A stretch of DNA of 41,069 nucleotides from a virus. This document shows, one piece after another, positions 9,506 to 40,336 of the stretch. Location of the stretch: positions 1 to 41,069 of the IMG/VR virus record IMGVR_UViG_3300045988_157337. One strand, 5' to 3'. The translations under genes were made by a program, and so were the position numbers. Within the stretch, counting starts at the first letter, position 1. Every line of letters begins with the position of its first letter. The notes beneath the pieces were generated by a model, which saw nothing but the letters and a program-made list of their open reading frames with translations, had not been told where the DNA came from and ran no database searches.

Positions 9506-10029
9506 GAAGGGACTGAAATGGCCGGCTTCGTGGCGTTCACCGCCGCAACTGCGGACACGAGATCCACGATCTGCGGCTCGATGCGGTCGCGGAGCGTCCG
9601 GAGCAGCTGGGGCGTGAATCCGGGAGGATCAATGATCTGCGCGGCGATCTGCTCCATGACGAGGTCGTTCTCGGTCTTCCCCTCCTCCGCGTGGTCGGCG
9701 CGGAAGCGGGTGATCCAGTCGGTGGACCGGCCCTGCACGGTGACGGCGAGGCTGGAGTCCTTCAGCTCGCGCGTCACTGCGGAGATCTCGTCCCTGATCC
9801 TCCTCTTCCTCTCCGTGTCCGCTGCGGCCTTCGCTTCCGTCAGGTCCGCCGTGAGGCGGGAGAGGGTGCCGAAGAGGTCGCCGCGGGCGTAGAGGACGAC
9901 GGTGCGGGTGGCGGGGATGACGCCCTCGACCCATGCGGCGAGGTCGAAGGTGGCGGGGTCGGGGGTGGTGTCCTGGGTCTGGGGCGTCGCGGTTTCGTTC
10001 ATCGTGAGTTCGTCGTCAATGGCTGCCAT
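9502..10029 (-). CDS. Tail assembly chaperone (G-like)
   Basis: 175 aa, acidic, with the ATG verified at 10029. Positioned between the major tail and tape measure genes. Confidence 0.7.
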   Translation of the reverse strand: MAAIDDELTMNETATPQTQDTTPDPATFDLAAWVEGVIPATRTVVLYARGDLFGTLSRLTADLTEAKAAADTERKRRIRDEISAVTRELKDSSLAVTVQGRSTDWITRFRADHAEEGKTENDLVMEQIAAQIIDPPGFTPQLLRTLRDRIEPQIVDLVSAVAAVNATKPAISVPS

Positions 10030-19138: not shown

Positions 19139-19465
19139 TCACTTCCGGTGGGCCGCTTTTCCGCCTGCGCGGCGATTACAACTTCGATGCTCTGGTCCGC
19201 GAATGATCGACCGATCATCGTCATCGTGACCTAAGTCGAACGGCTCGTCTGGACTGATCGGTTGTCCGCACCGCCAACACACGGCGTCACCCCGCGCGAC
19301 CTGGGCGGCGGCCCGGCGCCGGGCCCGGCGGTAGGCGGCGTCGTATCCTCGCGCTGCTGCTGATCCGCGAGCGCGCTCGCGGGCTCGTTGGTGGGTGGGG
19401 CAGTAGCGGGTGCCGGCCGGGATGAGGCGGGGGCATGATGGTCCTGCGCATCTGCGCTTGCTCAT
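19139..19465 (-). CDS. HNH endonuclease (terminase-associated)
   Basis: 108 aa. Cys pairs (CAGPSC...YCPTH, CWRCG) and a DLGHDDD...H..CN HNH signature. Lies upstream of the terminase genes, as in HK97-like cos phages. Confidence 0.8.
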   Translation of the reverse strand: MSKRRCAGPSCPRLIPAGTRYCPTHQRARERARGSAAARGYDAAYRRARRRAAAQVARGDAVCWRCGQPISPDEPFDLGHDDDDRSIIRGPEHRSCNRRAGGKAAHRK

Positions 19466-19643
19466 GGTGGATGCGTTCGTAGGGCGTCGGTGGTGCGGCG
19501 CGGGTGGTGGCGTCGGTGCGGTTGGTGCGGGCTGTGCAGCATGTGGGATGCGAAGGGTGGATCGGCGATCACCCGGCTGGTCGTACCTGGCACCCCGGCA
19601 CCCCCTGATGGATGTGGTGGGGTAGGGGGATGCTGGTGTGGCT

Positions 19644-19678
19644 GGGGGTTGGGAGGTGTGGGAAAGGTGGGCTGGGGG
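19644..19678 (+). other. Canonical G-quadruplex motif within a G/T-skewed 230-bp intergenic region
   Basis: GGGGG tt GGG aggtgt GGG aaaggt GGG ct GGGGG, with loops of 2, 6, 6 and 2 nt. Confidence 0.5.
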
Positions 19679-19697
19679 AGGCGTCCTTGTGTGGGCG

Positions 19698-20057
19698 TTA
19701 GCCGCCTGCGTCCTGTTGGAGTTGTACGATCGCCTGGTGCGCCCGGTGGTAGTCGTCGTCGTATCCGGGCTGTGGGGTGATCGCGTCTCGGCGTTCCATG
19801 ATGCGGAGGACTGTCTCCGCTGCCTTCTGGTCGCCCTGTAGGACCTGCGGCCATAGCTGCCGCTGCATGGTGTTGAGGCGTTGTGCTTCTAGGGCTGGGT
19901 CTGTGGTGGTGTCCGCGTTGCGGAGGGCGGCGGCGATGTCGCGGCGGGTTTGTGTGGGGGTGGTGCCGAGTTTGTCTGCGATTTGTGTGGCGGTGAGGCC
20001 GGCGGCGCGGAGGTCGAGGGCGCGGCGTCGGCGGTCTTCCACGTCTTTGTTCGCCAT
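19698..20057 (-). CDS. HTH DNA-binding protein (sigma-70 region 4 / LuxR-like helix-turn-helix) at the head of the late genes
   Basis: 119 aa with motif ALDLRAAGLTATQIADKLGTT. Confidence 0.6.
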   Translation of the reverse strand: MANKDVEDRRRRALDLRAAGLTATQIADKLGTTPTQTRRDIAAALRNADTTTDPALEAQRLNTMQRQLWPQVLQGDQKAAETVLRIMERRDAITPQPGYDDDYHRAHQAIVQLQQDAGG

Positions 20058-20083
20058 GCGCGCTCCTGGTGCTGTGGGTGCAC

Positions 20084-20121
20084 GCCGCCCCCGGGTGCTT
20101 GGTGGGCGGCCCGGGGGCGGC
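20084..20121 (-). terminator. Strong stem-loop (12-bp perfect stem) at the early/late operon boundary
   Basis: gccgcccccggg (20084..20095) pairs with cccgggggcggc (20110..20121). A second hairpin, ggggac-agtgc-gtcccc, lies at 20124..20140. No U-tract. Confidence 0.5.
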
Positions 20122-20197
20122 GTGGGGACAGTGCGTCCCCTTATGGGTGGGACAGTAGCACAGTTGGCGTATGCGCGCCTGCTGTACGTGAGGCGTG

Positions 20198-20410
20198 TCA
20201 GGCGCCGCGGGTGATCGCTAGGATCGGGAGCCAGCCGAGGCCGGCCCAGACAAGGCCAAGGGCGAATATGACTACGGTGATCATCAGTTCCGTTTCCGCT
20301 TGGTCCACGTGGCCGTGGATGTGGTCGTGTCGGGCGAGGAGGAGCATTGCGGCGGCGGATGCGAACGCGACCAGGATGCCGCCGACCCAGATGATGAGTG
20401 GTGCGGTCAC
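20198..20410 (-). CDS. Small membrane protein (2 TM)
   Basis: About 70 aa from the GTG at 20410 (GTGA overlap). Two hydrophobic helices flank a His-rich loop. Confidence 0.55.
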   Translation of the reverse strand: MTAPLIIWVGGILVAFASAAAMLLLARHDHIHGHVDQAETELMITVVIFALGLVWAGLGWLPILAITRGA

Positions 20411-20649
20411 GGGAGCGGCACCAGTCCTACCCACATGCCGATGATGGAGGTGATTGCGGCGAGTAACGCGGCTGCAGCGGATGCGACGATCCAGGCTATC
20501 GTCGCCTTGAAGAAGGTGCGGCCGATCGCGTCGATCTTCTTCTCCTGCTTCTCCGTGTGGGCGTAGTCGATGGCGATGTCGGCGATGATGTACGGGAGCA
20601 TCGTCAGGAATCCGAGTAGGACCCAGGTGAGAAGCGCTAGTTTCAGCAT
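20407..20649 (-). CDS. Small membrane protein (2 TM)
   Basis: 80 aa from the ATG at 20649. Hydrophobic N- and C-terminal helices. Lower GC than the neighbouring genes. Confidence 0.55.
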   Translation of the reverse strand: MLKLALLTWVLLGFLTMLPYIIADIAIDYAHTEKQEKKIDAIGRTFFKATIAWIVASAAAALLAAITSIIGMWVGLVPLP

Positions 20650-22366: not shown

Positions 22367-22755
22367 TCGTTGTCCTCCTTGTCCCACATGCGGTAGTAGG
22401 GGTTCTCGAGCTCTCCGAGGCCGCGGGGGTTGGCGAGTTCGAGGAGCGCGTCGGCGTGGCATGGCTGGCCTGGGGGGCACCAGCACGCGAGGTCGCGGCC
22501 CCACAGGTGGTTGACCAGGAGGTCGCGGACGCAGCGCCCGCGGCGCGTGTTGTCGAGCCAGGCGCAGTAGCGTGCGGCGGCCTCGGCGGGGGTGGCGACG
22601 ACCATGGGGTCCCCGGACTCGAGTTCGCGGCGTGTGCGGGCGACCCTGTAGGGGTTGCCGTAGGGGGTGCCGCGGCCGACGTAGACGGCGCCCCGTGGCA
22701 TGCGCCACCCTTTGGTGCGCTTGCGCTGGACGCGGCGTGGCATTCTCTTGCTCAT
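22363..22755 (-). CDS. DUF4326-like protein
   Basis: 130 aa from the ATG at 22755 (ATGA overlap). Carries GRGTPYGNPY and LACWCPPGQPCHAD motifs, which I recall as characteristic of DUF4326. Confidence 0.6.
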   Translation of the reverse strand: MSKRMPRRVQRKRTKGWRMPRGAVYVGRGTPYGNPYRVARTRRELESGDPMVVATPAEAAARYCAWLDNTRRGRCVRDLLVNHLWGRDLACWCPPGQPCHADALLELANPRGLGELENPYYRMWDKEDNE

Positions 22756-24083: not shown

Positions 24084-25045
24084 GCTGCGCCTCCCTCGAT
24101 GGCGAGCAGCGTCGCCGCCTGCGGGGCCCCGGCGCTCGCGGGCCCGGGAAGGGTGTCCGCCAGGGCGATCCAGGCGGCGACGCGGTCGTCGGTGGTGCTC
24201 CCGCCCCGCGCCCCGGGTGCGGGCGCCCTGCGCTGGCGGGCGTCGTGGTCTTCCTGGGCCCGGCGCGCCCAGTTGCGCCACGTGGCCGCCCAGTCGGTCT
24301 TCCGGCCCCGGGCGCCGGGGATGGCGCGCCAGTAGTCCGCGAATCGCGCTACCTCGGCGTTGGTGGCCGCAGCGGGGGCGTGCTCCCGGGTCCAGGCCAC
24401 GAGGGCCGGGCTGGGCTGCCAGTCCTCGGGGATCCGCGTCCCACGGGTCTTCCCGGAGGTCTTCGACGCGGGTGTCGTCGTCTTGGCGGGCGGCGCGGGC
24501 GCGTCAGCGGCCTGCGACGCAGAAGAAGAAACTTTAGTTTCTTCTATATCTTCCTTTCTCCTTTCTCCTTTCTCCTTGTCCTCGATGTCCCGGGGGGACG
24601 CATCCGGGACATCTCGGGGACACGTCCGGTTGTCCCCCGGGTTGTCCCCCGGGGACACGTCCGGTTGTCCCCCCTCGGACTTTTCGGCGCGTTGGCGCCG
24701 TTTCTTCGTGGTCGCTTTCTTCCGTGCGCTCTTGATGTTCGCGTATTTCTCGTTCCATTTGAGCCATGAGACGACGCGAACCTGGCTGTCGGCGACGGTG
24801 ACCAGACCGGCGGCCGCGAGCGCGTTTAGGCGTGCGTTTGCGGACGTGTCCCCGGGGACACCGGTGGGGAATCCGAGGCGTGTGAGGACCACGGTCTCGG
24901 GGACTCGGCCGTCGGTCTCGGGGTGGCCGGCGCACCAGGCGAGGAGGCGCGTGTACATGACCTCGGCGGCCTCGCCTGCCTCGATGATGGCCATGTCGTC
25001 GTAGTAGGAGGCGGCGAGGGCCGCGTATCGTCCGGGGCGTTTCAT
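24080..25045 (-). CDS. Putative replication initiator / replisome organiser
   Basis: 321 aa from the ATG at 25045. N-terminal winged-helix-like domain, a low-complexity charged linker, and a C-terminal Trp-rich motif (IPEDWQPS...FADYWRAIPGARGRKTDWAATWRNWARRA). An iteron cluster lies inside the linker-coding DNA. Confidence 0.6.
   Translation of the reverse strand: MKRPGRYAALAASYYDDMAIIEAGEAAEVMYTRLLAWCAGHPETDGRVPETVVLTRLGFPTGVPGDTSANARLNALAAAGLVTVADSQVRVVSWLKWNEKYANIKSARKKATTKKRRQRAEKSEGGQPDVSPGDNPGDNRTCPRDVPDASPRDIEDKEKGERRKEDIEETKVSSSASQAADAPAPPAKTTTPASKTSGKTRGTRIPEDWQPSPALVAWTREHAPAAATNAEVARFADYWRAIPGARGRKTDWAATWRNWARRAQEDHDARQRRAPAPGARGGSTTDDRVAAWIALADTLPGPASAGAPQAATLLAIEGGAA
24525..24674. 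promoter_or_regulatory. Putative origin of replication: AT-rich tract plus GGGGACA/TGTCCCC iteron cluster
   Basis: The AT-rich tract is 24525..24580. A 23-bp perfect direct repeat, ggggacacgtccggttgtccccc, occurs at 24616..24638 and 24651..24673. At least seven GGGGAC(A)/(T)GTCCCC copies in both orientations lie within about 90 bp. Confidence 0.6.
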
Positions 25046-25373: not shown

Positions 25374-25745
25374 CTATTCCTCCTCTATTCGGATGGTGAT
25401 TGTGTGCGTTCCCCTCGGGGCTTTCCCGGGGGCCCGCGTGTAGTCTGTGTGGGTGCGCCACCTGCTGTTGTCGTCGGGCCATACGCCGGCGTCGACGAGG
25501 CCGTCGATGATGGCCTTCACCGTGGGCGCGGCGTTGTCGGGGTCGGCGCGCGCGGCGGTGGGGTAGGCGACGGCGACGGTGACCCTGGACGGGCCCATTG
25601 GGCGCATTCCCTGGCTGCGGGCGGTGGCGTGGGCGCGCCAGCGGAGGGCGCGTGTGGCGCGGGCCCGGTGGGCCCAGTGGTAGCGGCCGTTCGCGGTCAG
25701 CCACTCGCTTTGGGGGACGGTGAGGGTGATCTCCTGCGCGGTCAC
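25374..25745 (-). CDS. rusA: RusA-family Holliday junction resolvase
   Basis: 123 aa from the GTG at 25745 (GTGA overlap). Motifs RADPDNAAPTVKAIIDGLVDAGVWPDD. Confidence 0.8.
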   Translation of the reverse strand: MTAQEITLTVPQSEWLTANGRYHWAHRARATRALRWRAHATARSQGMRPMGPSRVTVAVAYPTAARADPDNAAPTVKAIIDGLVDAGVWPDDNSRWRTHTDYTRAPGKAPRGTHTITIRIEEE

Positions 25746-32058: not shown

Positions 32059-33023
32059 CGCCGATCCCCCTCCCCGTCGCGGCTGGACTGGGGCCACACG
32101 TCGGCGACGACGCGAGCCTCCCGCACGCTGTCCCAGTGCTCCAGGGCGCACTGCCCCGAAGCACACTCGCAGAGGGCGTCAACGGGGACAGTGACCTCGT
32201 GGACGCTGATGTCACCCCCGACATGGTTGGCGGCGAGGGCGGGGGCCGGGTGCAGTGTGACGCGCATGCCGCGCGCCTGCAGGCGCTCCGCCTGCGCGGC
32301 GAGCGTCTCGCCCCGCGTTATTGCGTAGAGGCGGACCTCGCCCTTGTCGTCAATGGGGACGAGGTAGTCGGCGCACCACGCCCGCGCGGTGTACGCCCCC
32401 GCCTTCGGCACCCTGATCTGGATGCCGCTGCACACGGTGACTGTGTCGTCGTGGATGTAGACGACGACCATGGGGCCGGCCTCCACCTCCACGGCGTCGT
32501 ACGCGTGTACGCACACCGTGCCAGTCGCACGGACTTTCACGTTCCCGTAGGCGATGATGGTGGCGTTTCCCGTAGCTTCCACGATCGCCCACTGGTCGGC
32601 GATCACACGGACGAGGTCGTCCGCCGCGGCGTGAGACCAGTCCATGGCTGTCATGACAGCGCTGCCCTTGCCGTACAGGGTCGCGCCGTGCGCGGCGGAC
32701 GCGGCGCTGACATCGCGCACGTACCCCACTGACGAGTCCTCGGCGCGCAGGAACCCGCGGCCGAGAGAACAGACTTCAGCGGTGTCCTCCGACTCGATGT
32801 ACGCGCCCTCGGACAGGACGCTGGTGTTATCCCGCGCAGTGAGGCGCGCGGCGCCTCGCGCGTAGACTGAGGTATCGCCCACGACGTACACGTCCTTGCC
32901 GTGTGTTCCCCGTATCTCGATCCGACGTTTGGAGTCAACGATGATTTCGTCGTCTTTGGTGATCGCGGGGTCCGCGAGCGCCGCCTCGAGGGCTCCCACG
33001 GTCTTGCAGACAATTTCAGTCAT
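32055..33023 (-). CDS. Hypothetical early protein with beta-solenoid-like internal periodicity
   Basis: 322 aa from the ATG at 33023, preceded by AAGGAGGAGGAG. Contains repetitive short segments rich in V/A/G/T/D/S. Confidence 0.6.
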   Translation of the reverse strand: MTEIVCKTVGALEAALADPAITKDDEIIVDSKRRIEIRGTHGKDVYVVGDTSVYARGAARLTARDNTSVLSEGAYIESEDTAEVCSLGRGFLRAEDSSVGYVRDVSAASAAHGATLYGKGSAVMTAMDWSHAAADDLVRVIADQWAIVEATGNATIIAYGNVKVRATGTVCVHAYDAVEVEAGPMVVVYIHDDTVTVCSGIQIRVPKAGAYTARAWCADYLVPIDDKGEVRLYAITRGETLAAQAERLQARGMRVTLHPAPALAANHVGGDISVHEVTVPVDALCECASGQCALEHWDSVREARVVADVWPQSSRDGEGDRR

Positions 33024-36565: not shown

Positions 36566-36608
36566 TGGGCCCCACCCCCTAGCTCCAGTGGCCGGGGGGT
36601 GGGGCCCA
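36566..36608 (+). other. 14-bp perfect stem-loop immediately upstream of the 36614 gene
   Basis: tgggccccaccccc (36566..36579) pairs with gggggtggggccca (36595..36608), leaving a 15-nt loop. Confidence 0.6.
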
Positions 36609-36613
36609 CAACC

Positions 36614-37066
36614 ATGCGCAAAGGAGAAGATGTGATAACGATCATGTGCCCGGGGCGGATGACGGGCGCGGAGGTGACGGCGGCGCGTGAGGCCCTGGGC
36701 CTCACCACCGCGGAGTTCGCCGCCCTCGCGGGCGTCCACCCGCAGACGCCGCACAGGTGGGAGGCCGGCCGCGAGCCCGCGCCTGTGCGGATCGGGGGGC
36801 TGCTCGCGGATCTCGCCCGCGAGCACGACGACCTGGTCGACCTCCTGGTTGAGCGCACCGACGACGTCCGCGCCGACTACGCGGCGGTGGTGGTGCCCCG
36901 CACCAAGGAGGAGTACGCGGCACTCTGCCCGGACGCGAGTCGGCCCCTGCACTGGCTGCGCCTCGCCGCCTCCCGCGCCGCCAGCCAGGCCCCGCGCCTG
37001 CGCATAGTGCGGGACGCGGACGAGGCCGCGCGCCTGGGAGCGCAGGTGATCCACCCATCCATATGA
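36614..37066 (+). CDS. XRE-family HTH protein
   Basis: Candidate starts are ATG 36614, GTG 36632 (5 nt after AAGGAG) and ATG 36644. HTH LGLTTAEFAALAGVHPQTPHRWEAGRE. Confidence 0.65.
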   Translation: MRKGEDVITIMCPGRMTGAEVTAAREALGLTTAEFAALAGVHPQTPHRWEAGREPAPVRIGGLLADLAREHDDLVDLLVERTDDVRADYAAVVVPRTKEEYAALCPDASRPLHWLRLAASRAASQAPRLRIVRDADEAARLGAQVIHPSI

Positions 37067-37087
37067 CCGAGCTCACTCTCTATGGAG

Positions 37088-37116
37088 TTGTATCCCTAGC
37101 GCCACTAGGGTAGAGT
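37088..37116 (+). promoter_or_regulatory. Promoter-like element TTGTAT-N17-TAGAGT whose spacer carries the same CCCTAG-N5-CTAGGG operator core
   Basis: ttgtat ccctagcgccactaggg tagagt lies 60 nt upstream of the 37177 ATG. Confidence 0.6.
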
Positions 37117-37176
37117 AGGTGTCATGAGGCCAGGGAGACGCCCACAGGCCCATGACCCCCATAGGAGGGACCCACG

Positions 37177-37854
37177 ATGAGCACCATCGAAATCACCATC
37201 ACCGAGACCAGCCGCGGCAGGATCGCCGTCACCACCCCCTACAGCCCCGAGTTCGTGGCGTCTGCGAAGCGCCTGGGCGGCCGCTGGGCCCCCAAGAGCC
37301 ACGCCTGGACGTTCGACCTCCGCGACCGCGCCCGGGTCGAGGACATCCTCACCCAGTGCTTCGGGTGGGTGGCTGCACCCTCGGGCGAGCTCGCCACCGT
37401 CCGAGTCACCATCGACGACGGGGCCGGGAACGCCCCCGAGGTGCGATTCGCCGGCCGACCCATCTGTTGGAGGAGGGGCCGCGACGAGTCCGTGCGCCTC
37501 GCTGACAACGTCGTCATCGTCGCCGGCCACTTCCCCGGCTCCGGCGGATCCATGCGCCGGCCCCTGGTCATTTCTGCTCCCTCCGACGCGGAGGTGACCC
37601 TCGAGGTCAGGGACGTCCCGGTCGAGGGCCTGGCAGCTGAGGACTCGTCCCGGTGGGACTCGCTCCGGTGGGAGCGGGTCGACGCGGGCGGGGCCGCGCA
37701 GCGCGACGCCCTGGTCGCCGAGCGCGAGCGCCTCCAGTCCCGCCTGTCCGAGATCGACGCGATCCTCGCCGCCGCCGACTGCCCCCCCGGGCCCCGCCCC
37801 CAGCCTGGGGGCGGGGCCCCACCTCACAGGAGAGGAGACAGAAATGCACACTGA
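37177..37854 (+). CDS. Hypothetical protein with N-terminal AK.LGGRW...W motif (DUF5710-like by recollection)
   Basis: 225 aa. ATG preceded by ATAGGAGGG. N-terminus VTTPYSPEFVASAKRLGGRWAPKSHAWTF. Confidence 0.6.
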   Translation: MSTIEITITETSRGRIAVTTPYSPEFVASAKRLGGRWAPKSHAWTFDLRDRARVEDILTQCFGWVAAPSGELATVRVTIDDGAGNAPEVRFAGRPICWRRGRDESVRLADNVVIVAGHFPGSGGSMRRPLVISAPSDAEVTLEVRDVPVEGLAAEDSSRWDSLRWERVDAGGAAQRDALVAERERLQSRLSEIDAILAAADCPPGPRPQPGGGAPPHRRGDRNAH

Positions 37855-38767
37855 TATCACGGTCGAGCTGACCAATATGGTGGGCGACGGGGGCGCCGTC
37901 GTGGTTCCCGCCACCGAGGTCGAGGACGTCCTAGACCAGTGGTTCCCACCCGACGACCGGGCCGCGGATTCCCAGGCCGAGGACGCGGTCTCCACGGTCG
38001 TCCGGTGGGCGCGCGCGCACGACCCCGCCCGCGACGGCGGCGGCATCGTCGAGGCCCTGGCCTACCTCGGCATCAACGCCGAGATGCACACTCCCCCGGC
38101 CCCGCGCCGGCCCGACTACCGGCGGATCCTCACCCGCCGCCAGGTCGAGCGCCTCACCCGCGACCGCCTGCAGGCGGCCCTGGCCGCCACGGGCACCATC
38201 ATCCCCGGCGCGGACACCGAGGTAGTGCGGTTGGCCTACATCCAGGACATCCAGGGCCTGGACGCCATGCGCGCCGCCCTCGCGGCCATGGAGGCCGCCA
38301 CCACCGGGTACGACCCCCGACACAGGGAGCTCGTGCGCCGCTTCACCCTGGCCCACGAGGAGGCGCACGAGCGGTGGCTGGCCCACCGCCAGCAGGTCCT
38401 CGACGGCCGGATCCTGCCCGGCCGCGTCATCGAGGCCATCCGCACCGGCGCGGGCATGAGCCCCGCCGAGTGGGCCGACGCCCTCAGCGTCAGCGAGGGC
38501 ACCGCCCGGGACTGGGAGTCAGGGCGCCGCACGCCCCCCGCCGGGGCCTGCACCGACATGTGGGCAATCTGGCTGCGGTGGGTGAAGACCCAGGCGGCCG
38601 CCCTCGGCACCCCAGCCGCCGTCATCAACCAGCATTGGCGGGAGCCCGTGGCCGTGCTCCCCGCCGACACCCCCCTGCACGATCTCCGGGCCCTGGGGAT
38701 AATGCTCCAGGGCCGACGCTTCACCCTAGACCCAGGCCCGGAGATCCAGCACCCCACCCCCGCGTAA
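37844..38767 (+). CDS. Hypothetical protein with a C-terminal XRE-like HTH
   Basis: 307 aa. ATG preceded by AGGAGAGGAG. HTH GMSPAEWADALSVSEGTARDWESGRRTP. Confidence 0.65.
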   Translation: MHTDITVELTNMVGDGGAVVVPATEVEDVLDQWFPPDDRAADSQAEDAVSTVVRWARAHDPARDGGGIVEALAYLGINAEMHTPPAPRRPDYRRILTRRQVERLTRDRLQAALAATGTIIPGADTEVVRLAYIQDIQGLDAMRAALAAMEAATTGYDPRHRELVRRFTLAHEEAHERWLAHRQQVLDGRILPGRVIEAIRTGAGMSPAEWADALSVSEGTARDWESGRRTPPAGACTDMWAIWLRWVKTQAAALGTPAAVINQHWREPVAVLPADTPLHDLRALGIMLQGRRFTLDPGPEIQHPTPA

Positions 38768-38781
38768 CGGGCACAAGAATC

Positions 38782-38816
38782 GGGGCCCCGCCACACGGTT
38801 CGTGTGGCGGGGCCCC
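38782..38816. terminator. 15-bp perfect stem-loop; candidate bidirectional terminator between the plus-strand module and the minus-strand late operon/array
   Basis: ggggccccgccacac (38782..38796) pairs with gtgtggcggggcccc (38802..38816), leaving a 5-nt loop. Confidence 0.7.
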
Positions 38817-39045
38817 ACCCGCTCTCGCAGGCAATATTCAGTTCCAGCCCTCAGCGCAACCTAGTTAGCGGGTTCATCCCCACGTGAGCGGGGAACACGT
38901 GCACTGGTGCAACACTAACGGTTCATCCCCGCTCGCGCGGGGAACAGTTGGCTAGTTGCAACCCCAAAGGATCATCCCCACTTGCGTGGGGAAAAATTTC
39001 AACTGTGCAATTTCAAGGGCTCACCCCCGCTCTCGCGGGGACACC
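38809..39045 (-). CRISPR. Cas-less type I-E-like CRISPR repeat array: four 29-nt repeats, one degenerate terminal repeat, three 20-nt spacers and one 32-nt spacer
   Basis: Repeats on the plus strand are at 38870..38898, 38919..38947, 38968..38996 and 39017..39045, with a degenerate copy at 38809..38837. The minus-strand form is GTGTTCCCCGC-N4-GCGGGGATGAACCG-like, with a 6-bp stem, 4-nt loop and 8-nt handle. Confidence 0.8.
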
Positions 39046-39066
39046 TGGAGTGTACCACACTCAGGG

Positions 39067-39687
39067 TCAGTGCAGGTAGCGTTTCATCTCGTCAATGTAC
39101 GCCGATGCCTGGCGCTTGGAGAGTGCGCTCACGTCGATGGTGCGGAGCGCCTGCTCTTTAGCGCGGGCTTCGCGGGCTTGGCGAGCGACCGACCTACCCC
39201 ACACTCCACGCATCGCGCGCGTATACGCTAGATCAATGCGCGCTTCCGCTTGCGCGTTCGCTTTGTCCACAGCGTCCTGCTTGGCCCAGTACGCTGCGCC
39301 CTCGGGGGTTTTTATAGCGACCTTCCGGCGCATCCCACGCAGGCTCTCCGGCATCGGGATATCAGGCTTCAGGCTTCCGTCCTTCGTGAGTTTGTCCCTC
39401 ATTCTCTGTGCGGCTTCGTCTCCGGCCCTATCTCGCTCACGGTCTGCCTTCTGCTCGTACACGGACAGGTTGATGCGGTTGCTCTTGTCCTCCGCTTCGG
39501 ACGCTGTCCACGCGCGGGGCAGCGGATGCTGGTTGGCGGCCTCCTGCATTTTCTTCATGTACTCGACCTGCCGGGGTGTGGCTGCGCCGCCCTCGGCAGG
39601 ACCCAGGCCAAGATCTTCGGGGGTCGGCGCAGCGCTGCCTCCCCCGCCACCCCCGCCGCTGTGGCTGCTACCGCCTCGTCCACCCAT
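39067..39687 (-). CDS. Hypothetical protein with Gly-rich N-terminus and charged helical body
   Basis: 206 aa with the ATG verified. Lies immediately upstream (in transcription order) of the repeat array. Confidence 0.6.
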   Translation of the reverse strand: MGGRGGSSHSGGGGGGGSAAPTPEDLGLGPAEGGAATPRQVEYMKKMQEAANQHPLPRAWTASEAEDKSNRINLSVYEQKADRERDRAGDEAAQRMRDKLTKDGSLKPDIPMPESLRGMRRKVAIKTPEGAAYWAKQDAVDKANAQAEARIDLAYTRAMRGVWGRSVARQAREARAKEQALRTIDVSALSKRQASAYIDEMKRYLH

Positions 39688-40336
39688 CGTTCTTCATCCT
39701 CTCTGTCTGCGTCGTGTAGCAATGCACCTCGGCCCCATGCCAGTCGACGCCGCCGAGGGGCCGTCCGTGATGGATCACGTGGTGCGGCGCCAGCTCGACG
39801 AGCGCAGCCTCGATGCCCTTCCTCCAATTATCCTCCGCCTCTGGGGTTTTGCGCGCTCCCACGGTCGACACGGCTACGATTCCGCCGTGCGGAAGGCCGC
39901 CGAAGGAGTAGGCGAGACTGGTCTCGTCACTCCACTGGAGGGTTGGGATCACGGGGATTCCCTGTCTTTGCCACCAGGAGCCGAGTGCTCGGCTCCTGTA
40001 CATGTTCCACAGGCGCATGGGGAGGGGCATGTCCAGGTAGGTGCTGAAGTCGGGGGTGAGGACTGCCCAGTATTGGGACAGCATCCTTGTGTAGCTCTCC
40101 GGCCTCCTCCACACCCTTTCGAACTGGTAGTCGTCGAGGAAGAAGTGGATGCCGACGTTCTTGTCCCTGTGGGTCTTCGCGTAGTTGAATCCGACGAGGT
40201 CGGGGGGCGGCTCGATTGTCTCGTCGAAGTGGATTGGGGGGAAGTCCCAGGGGCCCGCGCAGTGCGCGCGGTTGGTCATGCGCAGGTTGTAGGCGTCGTC
40301 GCTGCGCATGTACTGGTTCTCTTTCGCGTAGTCCAC
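39668..40336 (-). CDS. DUF4417-like protein
   Basis: 222 aa. GTG start after AAAGGAGGAGCG. The motif block IHFFLDDYQFERVW...TPDFSTYLDMP...WNMYRSRALG...GIPVIPTLQW matches my recollection of DUF4417. Confidence 0.65.
   Translation of the reverse strand: MDYAKENQYMRSDDAYNLRMTNRAHCAGPWDFPPIHFDETIEPPPDLVGFNYAKTHRDKNVGIHFFLDDYQFERVWRRPESYTRMLSQYWAVLTPDFSTYLDMPLPMRLWNMYRSRALGSWWQRQGIPVIPTLQWSDETSLAYSFGGLPHGGIVAVSTVGARKTPEAEDNWRKGIEAALVELAPHHVIHHGRPLGGVDWHGAEVHCYTTQTERMKNDGWTRR

Follow-up and report, generated by a model that had tools for sequence, protein, structure and literature searches.

The 41,069-nt sequence of IMG/VR virus record IMGVR_UViG_3300045988_157337, called the window here when the whole stretch is meant, is a 41-kb siphovirus-like phage genome with terminase, tape-measure, holin and integrase genes and a G+C content of 69%. 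At the distal end of its minus-strand structural and lysis genes lies an array of repeats of the kind found in type I-E CRISPR systems. The array follows genes for the tape measure, tail proteins, a 294-aa protein, the holin, a 164-aa protein, a DUF4417 protein and a 163-aa protein. A preliminary description of this DNA had placed I-E-type repeats without cas genes at the distal end of the late operon of an actinophage, and this is borne out by the holin and tail genes upstream. Judging from sequence comparisons, the locus is probably an array of CRISPR RNA (crRNA)-like regulatory anti-CRISPR RNAs, that is, a Cracr array or viral regulatory mini-array, directed against the I-E system of the phage's host.

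The array consists of four 29-nt type I-E repeats (R1 to R4), with sequences exactly as quoted in the preliminary description, on the minus strand at positions 39045-38870 with a strict 49-nt period, and of a real but degenerate fifth repeat (R5). Between the repeats are four segments or pseudo-spacers, S1 to S4 (Table 1). A degenerate I-E pattern (TTCCCCRCNNNNGYGGGGATGA) fits R1 to R4 with 0-2 mismatches and gives 10 matches in the window, where 0.3 are expected and none of 100 shuffles reaches that number; the 10 include opposite-strand matches of the units and three scattered ones with 2-3 mismatches elsewhere. The period of 49 has the highest Tandem Repeats Finder score in the window (139). 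R1 to R4 are identical to one another at 19-23 of 29 positions, and R3 agrees at 25 of 29 with the E. coli K-12 repeat given in the preliminary description. R5 shares 19 of 29 positions with R1 and has retained a stem of 5 bp, one pair of which is G.U, while its 3' end forms part of the terminator stem, giving a fused repeat and terminator. It starts 61 nt after R4, which leaves a segment of 32 nt (S4) where the other three segments have 20 nt.

Table 1. The phage array with its flanking signals, in window positions, and the target sites in host loci (L-numbers denote retrieved phage, virus or host loci and contigs). The protospacer adjacent motif (PAM) is written before the hyphen.
Feature	Position	Strand	Sequence	Remarks
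Predicted extended -10 promoter element	39049..39059	-	TGTGGTACACT	Immediately follows the 163-aa gene's stop codon; 3 nt upstream of R1
R1	39017..39045	-	GGTGTCCCCGCGAGAGCGGGGGTGAGCCC	Hairpin CCCCGC/GCGGGG
S1	38997..39016	-	TTGAAATTGCACAGTTGAAA	20 nt
R2	38968..38996	-	TTTTTCCCCACGCAAGTGGGGATGATCCT	A-U stem pair where the other repeats have G-C (compensatory change, pair 10-17)
S2	38948..38967	-	TTGGGGTTGCAACTAGCCAA	20 nt
R3	38919..38947	-	CTGTTCCCCGCGCGAGCGGGGATGAACCG	
S3	38899..38918	-	TTAGTGTTGCACCAGTGCAC	20 nt
R4	38870..38898	-	GTGTTCCCCGCTCACGTGGGGATGAACCC	G.U wobble pair in the stem, workable only in minus-strand RNA
S4	38838..38869	-	GCTAACTAGGTTGCGCTGAGGGCTGGAACTGA	32 nt, the canonical length
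R5 (degenerate, terminal)	38809..38837	-	ATATTGCCTGCGAGAGCGGGTGGGGCCCC	Hairpin retained, 5'-handle part gone
Terminator-like hairpin	38781..38817	-		17-bp stem with 14 G-C pairs, then ATTCTTGTGC
Target in L083			AAC-TTAGTATTGCAA	Upstream of cas3
Target in L087			AAC-TTGGGTTTGCAACT	Upstream of cas3; L087-type target also AAC-TTGGGTTTGCAACTTTTTCT
Target in L109			AAC-TTGGATTTGCAACTAGCC	Upstream of cas3; AAC-TTGGATTTGCAACTAGCCCT in the comparison with S2
Target in L091			AAG-GCTAATCATGTTGCGCT	Upstream of cas3

The segments between the repeats differ from the spacers of an ordinary CRISPR array. S1, S2 and S3 match one another at 10-12 of 20 positions in the common frame TTRNN-N-TTGCA-N, and because they are mutually homologous and only 20 nt long they are not acquired spacers. 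The array further departs from a canonical one in that I-E spacers typically have 32-33 nt, those of the host arrays 33 nt, and in having neither a leader nor cas genes in cis. As the preliminary description had said, the 41-kb window holds no cas gene: tblastn with host Cas3, Cse1, Cse2, Cas7, Cas5, Cas6e, Cas1 and Cas2 returned only noise (best E = 0.017 over 45 aa). What that description overlooked is the homology of S1 to S3, the 32-nt length of S4 and the role of the inter-repeat DNA as the carrier of information, with seeds that copy a host regulator and its promoter target. The array is no artefact of assembly, since L070 and L071, two further independent assemblies of human oral metagenomes, carry it without a single base change, and a variant of it is present in the phage contig L147, which is 96-98% identical to the window. 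No CRISPR repeat family turned up in an Rfam scan of positions 38600-39300 with E values up to 10, whose only matches were weak and at chance level, to Pxr and, at the terminator hairpin, to miRNAs.

Variation among the repeats suggests that the array is read as RNA. Against shuffled sequence the folding of the array region has z = -7.7. In an alignment of 26 phage repeat copies from the window, L147 and other viral arrays, six stem pairs are standard in 100% of cells. Stem pair 5 is G-C in 15 copies, A-U in 8 and G.U in 3; no shuffle attains the observed covariation score, and shifting the pairing register destroys the pairing. G.U pairs are meaningful on one RNA strand only, and the array looks like an RNA read from the minus strand. 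The tandem 49-nt units, each with a palindrome and a conserved TTGCA motif, and the adjoining plus-strand genes for helix-turn-helix (HTH) proteins would also suit an element that works as DNA, such as iterons or other protein-binding sites at a replication origin, partition site or operator array. Iterons had been named as an alternative in the preliminary description. We regard this as extremely unlikely: the units are I-E repeats complete with handle, their stem variation is compensatory and their G.U pairs specific to one RNA strand, TTGCA is accounted for by the -35 box of a host promoter described below, and arrays of this build, with terminators behind them, are also present in unrelated viral contigs.

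The array likely carries its own extended -10-like promoter. The interval between R1 and the stop codon of the 163-aa gene is only 21 nt, and the sequence predicted as a promoter element there is similar to the -10 region (GTGGTAYNNT) seen in the host target promoters. In L147 the DUF4417 and 163-aa genes are absent and the array stands directly after the 164-aa gene, and the -10-like element is retained as TGTGGTATACT at an unchanged distance from R1. Because array and -10 element stay together without the two upstream genes, the array behaves as a cassette and is more than the 3' end of an operon. The two genes themselves (39067-40336), being missing from L147, constitute accessory DNA inserted between the array and the lysis genes.

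The phage comes from human oral metagenomes, and the relatives of its terminase include metagenome-assembled genomes of Ancrocorticia (Actinomycetaceae) and Promicromonosporaceae. A scan of genome collections yielded two Actinomycetota loci that have a solitary repeat plus TTGGNNTTGCA beside a Cas3 gene, one in Corynebacterium sp. (L041) and the other in Pauljensenia hongkongensis HKU8 (L069). With the HKU8 Cas3 as query, complete I-E loci with the order cas3-cse1-cse2-cas7-cas5-cas6e-cas1-cas2-CRISPR were retrieved from oral metagenomes; loci whose Cas3 is 92-94% identical to that of HKU8 have 70% G+C, close to the 69% of the window. Genome-wide pattern scans of this kind mostly gave chance matches in coding DNA or ordinary CRISPR spacers, and the relevant loci were limited to two in GTDB representative genomes (L041 and L069), two in IMG/VR (L010 and L017) and about 15 in metagenomes.

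The spacers of these loci tie the phage to its host. A host I-E locus with similar repeats, which the preliminary description had proposed to look for, was found, and it targets the window phage. R1 to R4 match the host CRISPR repeat (GTTTTCCCCGCACGCGCGGGGATGAGCCC; array repeat GTTTTCCCCGCACGCGCGGGGATGAGCC) at 21-24 of 29 positions; R3 matches the repeat of L083 and L087 at 23 of 29 and that of L073 at 25 of 29. Agreement with the window at 30-33 of 33 positions is seen in 5 of 55 spacers in L083, 8 of 16 in L087 and 1 of 9 in L088, 14 in total, and the PAMs of the 14 protospacers are AAC (eight), AAG (five) and CAG (one). The eight in L087 are consecutive (nos. 9-16 of the array at about 19454-20461), suggesting a burst of primed adaptation against the window phage. 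Their protospacers lie at 2137-2169, 2777-2809, 22591-22623, 25435-25467, 32194-32226, 32311-32343, 32939-32971 and 40049-40081, the last of which is in the DUF4417 gene and is the target of spacer no. 11. The 14 matching spacers identify the host group as Pauljensenia hongkongensis-like oral Actinomycetaceae and indicate that its I-E system actively targets this phage. An abundant oral Cas3 cluster, P0199 (L073-L082), and clusters P0125, P0127 and P0134 were rejected as hosts; they represent different species with 62-65% G+C and other regulator seeds (ATGCAGTGCAT...). Among these clusters the arrays of the P0199 loci were screened, and their 378 CRISPR spacers contain no convincing match to the window.

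Upstream of cas3, each host locus has a crRNA-like regulator of its own and a promoter that the regulator partly matches. The regulator consists of a repeat (psiR1), a 33-nt pseudo-spacer (psiS) and a second repeat (psiR2) that lacks the handle; psiR1 is degenerate and ends in the handle GTGAGCCG in most alleles and GTGAGCCA in L091. The Cas3 genes of these loci were called from Pfam Cas3_HD and related domains. At a distance of 10-40 nt beyond psiR2 is a target flanked by AAC or AAG, which matches the first 11-20 nt of psiS with mismatches at positions 6 and 12 and overlaps a promoter with the -35 box TTGCAA, a spacer of about 16-17 nt and the -10 box TAYYAT after GTGG. The PAM set AAC/AAG is independent of these regulator targets, since it was derived from the 14 protospacers. 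Cassette alleles fall into the types TTGGAT.. (L069 and L109), TTGGGT.. (L087 and eight more loci, with several target variants) and TTAGTG.. (L083-85 and L151), in addition to an unrelated GCTAAC.. (L091). Published CreR/CreA regulatory mini-arrays, whose partial pairing represses cas or toxin promoters, have the same layout (bioRxiv 10.1101/2023.03.10.532045; PMC10120712).

Between the target promoter and cas3 there is a small open reading frame (ORF), located at 397-492 in L091 and at 9699-9902 in both L083 and L087. In most alleles (L069, L083, L087) it encodes a 67-aa Cys-rich protein with a weak match to Ada_Zn_binding (E = 0.02). In L091 it encodes a 31-aa hydrophobic peptide, MASFWATIIGGILGEAVGAVVAVVVSKLLQR, which looks toxin-like, and a safeguard of the CreTA type in these I-E loci is a possibility.

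Related elements occur outside the host group. Other oral Actinomycetaceae with 62-65% G+C (L073-L082, 9720-9870) have a different crRNA-like gene upstream of cas3, with the pseudo-spacer ATGCAGTGCATTAGG... and the target AAG-ATGCATTGCATAAG, which mismatches its own pseudo-spacer exactly at positions 6 and 12. L205-L207 have a related element upstream, at about 310-470. A solitary crRNA-like gene with the seed TTGGCTTTGCA, divergent from cas3, is found in Corynebacterium sp. YSMAA1_1_F7 (L041, 4650-4870) and in L149, and a target-like AAC-TTGGTATTGCATGG stands beside the cas3 start. As the TTGCA (-35-box) seed theme is also found in the Corynebacterium locus, it is common to several Actinomycetota genera.

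The phage segments were compared with host psiS and target sequences in exact register, immediately after the handle. In S3, the first 12 nt are identical to psiS of the host allele L083-L085 (CCG-TTAGTGTTGCAC..., 12 of 12), and against the L083 target it has mismatches only at positions 6 and 12. These two positions are bases that Cascade flips out of the duplex. S2 agrees with the L087-type target AAC-TTGGGTTTGCAACTTTTTCT at 10 of 10 pairing positions of the seed and with the L087 psiS at 10 of 11, the sole difference being at position 6. Against the L109 promoter target S2 matches 16 of 20 positions (1-4 and 7-18), including positions 12-18, where the host's own psiS does not match. S4 matches the L091 psiS (CCA-GCTAACCAGGTGGCGCT) at 15 of its first 17 positions and the L091 target at 14 of 17, with mismatches at 6, 7 and 9. 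S1 is nearest to the psiS of HKU8 (L069) and L109 (TTGGATTTGCACAGT), with 13 of the first 15 positions and a mismatch at seed position 4, and it agrees with their target AAC-TTGGATTTGCA at 9 of 10 seed positions. By the measure used to recognize Cracr guides, a psiS match over at least nine PAM-proximal positions, S3 has 12 contiguous nt, S2 has 10 of 11 and S4 has 15 of 17, and S1 reaches only the 13 of 15 with the mismatch at position 4. The likeness extends to the repeats: the 5'-handle part of R1, GTGAGCCC, matches the handle of the host regulator, and the last 14 nt of R1 agree with host psiR1 at 13 of 14 positions. In 99 kb of host DNA there are four exact seed matches, all at the regulator or its target, where shuffled seeds give 0.12. 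The S1 to S4 seeds were not found elsewhere in the phage genome. Short hairpins within the 20-nt segments had been considered meaningful and were dropped after the segments were aligned with host promoter sequence.

The host targets carry the interference-type PAMs AAC and AAG, S4 has the canonical length of 32 nt, and viral mini-arrays against other viruses are known (PMC10120712). These points would fit a functional mini-CRISPR array that directs host Cascade-Cas3 to cleave competing phages (superinfection exclusion) or the host CRISPR locus. Such a role is highly improbable here. Three of the four spacers have 20 nt, and interference in vivo has been reported in E. coli for spacers of more than 20 nt (PMC5159557). 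The spacers are mutually homologous and therefore were not independently acquired, and there is no leader and no adaptation module. Pairing with the targets identified is partial: S2 and S3 are complementary over 10-16 nt, and S4 at 14 of its first 17 positions, with three seed-region mismatches; a full-length match is absent from every sequence retrieved.

Comparison with related phages shows that the seeds are conserved while the remainder of each guide changes. In L147, S1 and S4 are identical to those of the window and S3 has one change. S2 of L147 keeps positions 1-11 and has a replaced 3' half (TTGGGGTTGCAGCTGTTTGAAT), which fits the L087-type promoter target at 14 of 19 positions. A seed that is kept and a 3' part that is retargeted is the pattern predicted by selection for pairing with a target. 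A scan of IMG/VR for two I-E repeats 14-26 nt apart gave nine contigs (L001-L009), all with periods of 49-50 nt and terminators after the last repeat, and with short segments that are homologous to one another within each array. Examples are L009 (2791-3258, minus strand), L003 (2349-2815) and L004 (4374-4840, minus strand). The L009 array, with periods of 50, 50, 49 and 62 nt and a last repeat without a handle, has the same layout of three short segments and one long segment as the window. A scan for a handle followed by TTRNNNTTGCA found arrays in the unrelated phage contigs L010 and L017, and later in L093 and L097, in which the S2 and S3 seeds (TTGGGGTTGCAC... and TTAGTGTTGCAT...) are joined to 3' parts of different sequence and different length. 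Segment positions 1-5 and 7-11 are thus conserved across the window phage, L147 and unrelated phages, while the 3' parts diverge. An IMG/VR scan for S4-like seeds gave chance matches only, and IMG/VR searches with the two proteins that flank the array found no relatives.

These comparisons also bear on whether the locus is still functional. The likeness to host crRNA-like genes suggests that host DNA was captured, R5 is degenerate and S1 has no known target, all of which would suit a relic of host CRISPR or regulatory DNA that was acquired by recombination, was duplicated and is decaying in an intergenic gap. We consider a relic very unlikely. Decay is hard to reconcile with the strict 49-nt period, with an array that is identical in two further independent metagenome assemblies, and with the retention of array and -10 element in L147 despite the deletion of neighbouring genes. 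The substitutions between the two phages preserve or restore hairpins: the G.U pair of R4 is G-C in L147, and CCTGC in R5 of the window is CCCGC in L147, a U to C change that restores a C-G pair. The seeds, moreover, are conserved as the 3' parts change.

The preliminary description had proposed that the array is either a decoy for Cas6e or Cascade or a means of hijacking a host effector. The seed and promoter matches favour the second of these. As a pure decoy, the array would be an RNA anti-CRISPR (Racr) whose repeats bind Cas6e and nucleate aberrant Cas subcomplexes, with the segments as mere linkers. Its hairpins of the Cas6e type are intact in all units, its spacers are too short for normal interference, and S1 and S4 lack perfect targets; Racrs have been validated experimentally, two of them of type I-E (PMC10651486), and sequestration would act immediately in lytic infection. 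Even so, a decoy alone is unlikely. Linkers should drift, yet it is the 3' parts that diverge, and positions 1-5 and 7-11 are kept; the seeds line up in register with those of the host regulator and with promoter sites that have a PAM, in exact matches well above the number expected by chance; and S2 matches a promoter through position 18. In CracrIE1, seed mutations are reported to abolish the anti-CRISPR effect although Cas6e binding and processing are unchanged (bioRxiv 10.1101/2024.10.29.618823). Decoy and guide effects are compatible, and sequestration may contribute as well.

From the anatomy of the array, the host link, the seed and target matches and the hairpin-preserving variation, we infer a route by which transcription, processing, loading into Cascade and repression would benefit the phage. 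Minus-strand transcription of the array would start from its own extended -10 element, perhaps with added read-through from the late operon, and would end at the hairpin 38817-38781. Going by I-E biochemistry, host Cas6e would cut at the hairpin bases to give three 49-nt RNAs (8-nt handle, 20-nt guide and 21-nt hairpin) and one of about 61 nt. Each RNA would nucleate a host Cascade, and the 20-nt guides would be 12 nt below the normal length. In E. coli, guides shortened by 12 nt give Cascades with fewer Cas7 subunits, and spacers down to 14 nt, shorter than those for which interference in vivo is reported, still gave primed adaptation (PMC5159557). The PAM-proximal seeds would lead the complexes to the AAC- or AAG-flanked site of the host's own crRNA-like regulator, where the bound complex would cover the -35 box TTGCAA of the promoter ahead of the small ORF and the cas3-cse1-cse2-cas7-cas5-cas6e-cas1-cas2 operon. 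With pairing confined to about 10-16 nt, the complex would repress without recruitment of Cas3 or cleavage, presumably as the host regulator does. Expression of the cas genes (or of the small ORF) would be lowered, and antiviral crRNAs would in addition face competition from these RNAs for Cas proteins, a Racr-like decoy effect. The four guides may differ because they are fitted to different cassette alleles, which would allow one phage to cover several host strains.

Silencing would be especially useful during lysogeny, as this is a temperate phage with an integrase whose hosts have matching spacers. There is a precedent in the I-E Cracr array of a Salmonella prophage, which has 21-24-nt pseudo-spacers, is processed in a Cas-dependent manner, lowers casA transcription and restores plating of T7 (bioRxiv 10.1101/2024.10.29.618823). 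At the level of sequence, the window array shows every feature of the class formed by Cracr arrays and viral regulatory mini-arrays: it is encoded by a virus, its repeats are host-like, its seeds match, and its target is a PAM-flanked promoter.

Several points weigh against a set of regulatory guides that represses the host cas genes. A scan with the sigma-70 consensus found no full promoter at the array, where the extended -10 has no -35 element. Each of the handles of R2, R3 and R4 (ATGATCCT, ATGAACCG and ATGAACCC) departs from the host handle ATGAGCCN by one or two positions. No exact-seed partner for S1, which would have the form AAC-TTGAANTTGCA, is present among the host alleles found, and the mismatches of S4 at positions 7 and 9 to the one L091-type target sampled could prevent binding. 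An origin of the guides in captured host crRNA-like genes could explain part of the seed matches to host psiS without any present function; pure descent is argued against by S2, which matches the promoter target. Transcriptional repression would leave ready-made Cascade in place, and any benefit in lytic growth may come mostly from competition for Cas proteins. Finally, a conserved TATTAT element, separate from the target promoter, is located just upstream of cas3, and the target promoter may drive cas3, the small ORF only, or both.

The last point leads to a different role for the same guides. If the target promoter mainly controls the small ORF, the host loci would contain a CreTA-like, CRISPR-guarded toxin cassette in an Actinomycetota I-E system, and the phage array would be a multi-allele key that keeps the toxins silent while CRISPR is disabled. 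We hold this to be rather unlikely. If true, the array would be an anti-abortive-infection device instead of a simple repressor of cas genes, and in the human mouth it would evolve with its host, one allele following another.

The surroundings of the array hold further features. A plus-strand operon with HTH proteins (36599-38767) converges on the array, with the terminator-like 17-bp hairpin in between, which also stands just downstream of the convergent 307-aa gene. The operon adjoins the integrase gene and has three genes, which encode a 144-155-aa HTH protein with a weak match to Aca2_YdiL (E = 0.003), a 225-aa protein (phrog_18108, no known function) and a 307-aa HTH_31 protein; it could be an immunity region or an anti-defence or Aca-like module. 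On the other side, a 206-aa ORF next to the array is the 163-aa gene, for which gene callers take a later start. INPHARED phages contain no DNA near-identical to positions 38000-40000 and no protein match to the 206-aa ORF. The closest isolates are Arthrobacter phages, with about 51% terminase identity. The window has no tRNA genes, and it has a perfect tandem heptamer, TCCTTTC in 3.7 copies, at 24552-24577 in a genome of otherwise 70% G+C.

The locus ties together a CRISPR counter-defence circuit from sequence alone: an oral phage, a host species complex, up to eight anti-phage spacers, a host regulator and a phage array. It extends the strategy of Cracr arrays and regulatory mini-arrays to Actinomycetota I-E systems, and it has a layout of one array for many alleles. 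There are signs of allele-for-allele tracking, in that the two variants of S2 fit two promoter variants. Natural I-E guides of 20 nt, 12 nt below the usual length, may be useful in designing Cascade repressors that do not cleave. No new principle is involved; the value of the locus is that it gives a clean, testable example and exposes the small-ORF cassettes of the host. To the preliminary description the multi-unit I-E form on an actinophage looked undescribed, which is wrong, as such elements are reported in PMC10651486, PMC10120712 and bioRxiv 10.1101/2024.10.29.618823. The class is already known: Racrs and viral regulatory mini-arrays were both published in 2023, and I-E Cracr arrays in a preprint of 2024-26.

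Compared with canonical I-E arrays (E. coli K-12, L083 and L087), the phage array shares the 29-nt repeat, the CCCCGC/GCGGGG stem, the 4-nt loop and the AUGAxCCN handle. Canonical arrays have a period of 61 nt, in contrast to the 49 nt of the window, where the spacers are homologous, the repeats have diverged, and leader and cas genes are lacking. Host CreR/CreA mini-arrays resemble it in the order psiR-psiS-psiR, in a last repeat that has no handle, and in being partly complementary to a nearby promoter that has a canonical PAM. Those elements are chromosomal, have a single guide and serve cas autoregulation or toxin control, whereas the array of the window is phage-borne and has several guides, 20 nt in length. 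Racrs (Camara-Wilpert et al. 2023, PMC10651486), such as RacrIE1 and RacrIE2, which inhibit a I-E system, are likewise repeat mimics on mobile elements that lack cas genes, and they depend on recognition by Cas6, as the array of the window would. They are solitary repeat units without guide information, while the segments of the window carry conserved seeds that match promoters.

Closer relatives are the viral regulatory mini-arrays (Shmakov et al. 2023, PMC10120712). Like the array in the window, these are phage copies of host mini-arrays with high seed identity and divergent downstream sequence, truncated spacers and frequent mismatches at every sixth position. The documented cases belong to types I-B (Clostridium, Fusobacterium) and I-F1 (Pseudomonas, Acinetobacter, Moraxella) and mostly have one or two spacers truncated by 2-3 nt; for the sole case in an actinophage, Saccharomonospora phage PIS 136, no target was identifiable (PMC10120712). 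The window differs in being of type I-E, in its truncation by 12 nt and in having targets assigned.

The closest likeness is to the Cracr arrays (Liu et al., bioRxiv 10.1101/2024.10.29.618823, version of July 2026), of which CracrIE of a Salmonella prophage is an example. CracrIE and the array of the window are both phage-borne, lack cas genes and consist of I-E repeat-like units with shortened pseudo-spacers (21-24 nt in CracrIE, 20 nt in the window). In both, the seeds match a CreR-type regulator of the host and a PAM-flanked site at a cas promoter, the last repeat is degenerate, and several guides in one array address variants of one system in closely related strains. The target taxa in the preprint include Actinomycetota. 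The I-E arrays described there have two and three spacers, while the four guides of the window comprise three of 20 nt and one of 32 nt. In contrast to CracrIE, the host is an oral actinomycete, and the target is upstream of cas3 and a small ORF instead of at the casA promoter. The IMG/VR scan for closely spaced I-E repeats, a pattern that the array of the window should have fitted, gave other contigs only, and the window phage is therefore probably outside the set of the preprint. What is specific to the window is thus the set of four guides, the oral actinophage that carries them, the target upstream of cas3 and a small ORF, the fit of guides to individual host alleles, and a link to the host that is based on spacers.

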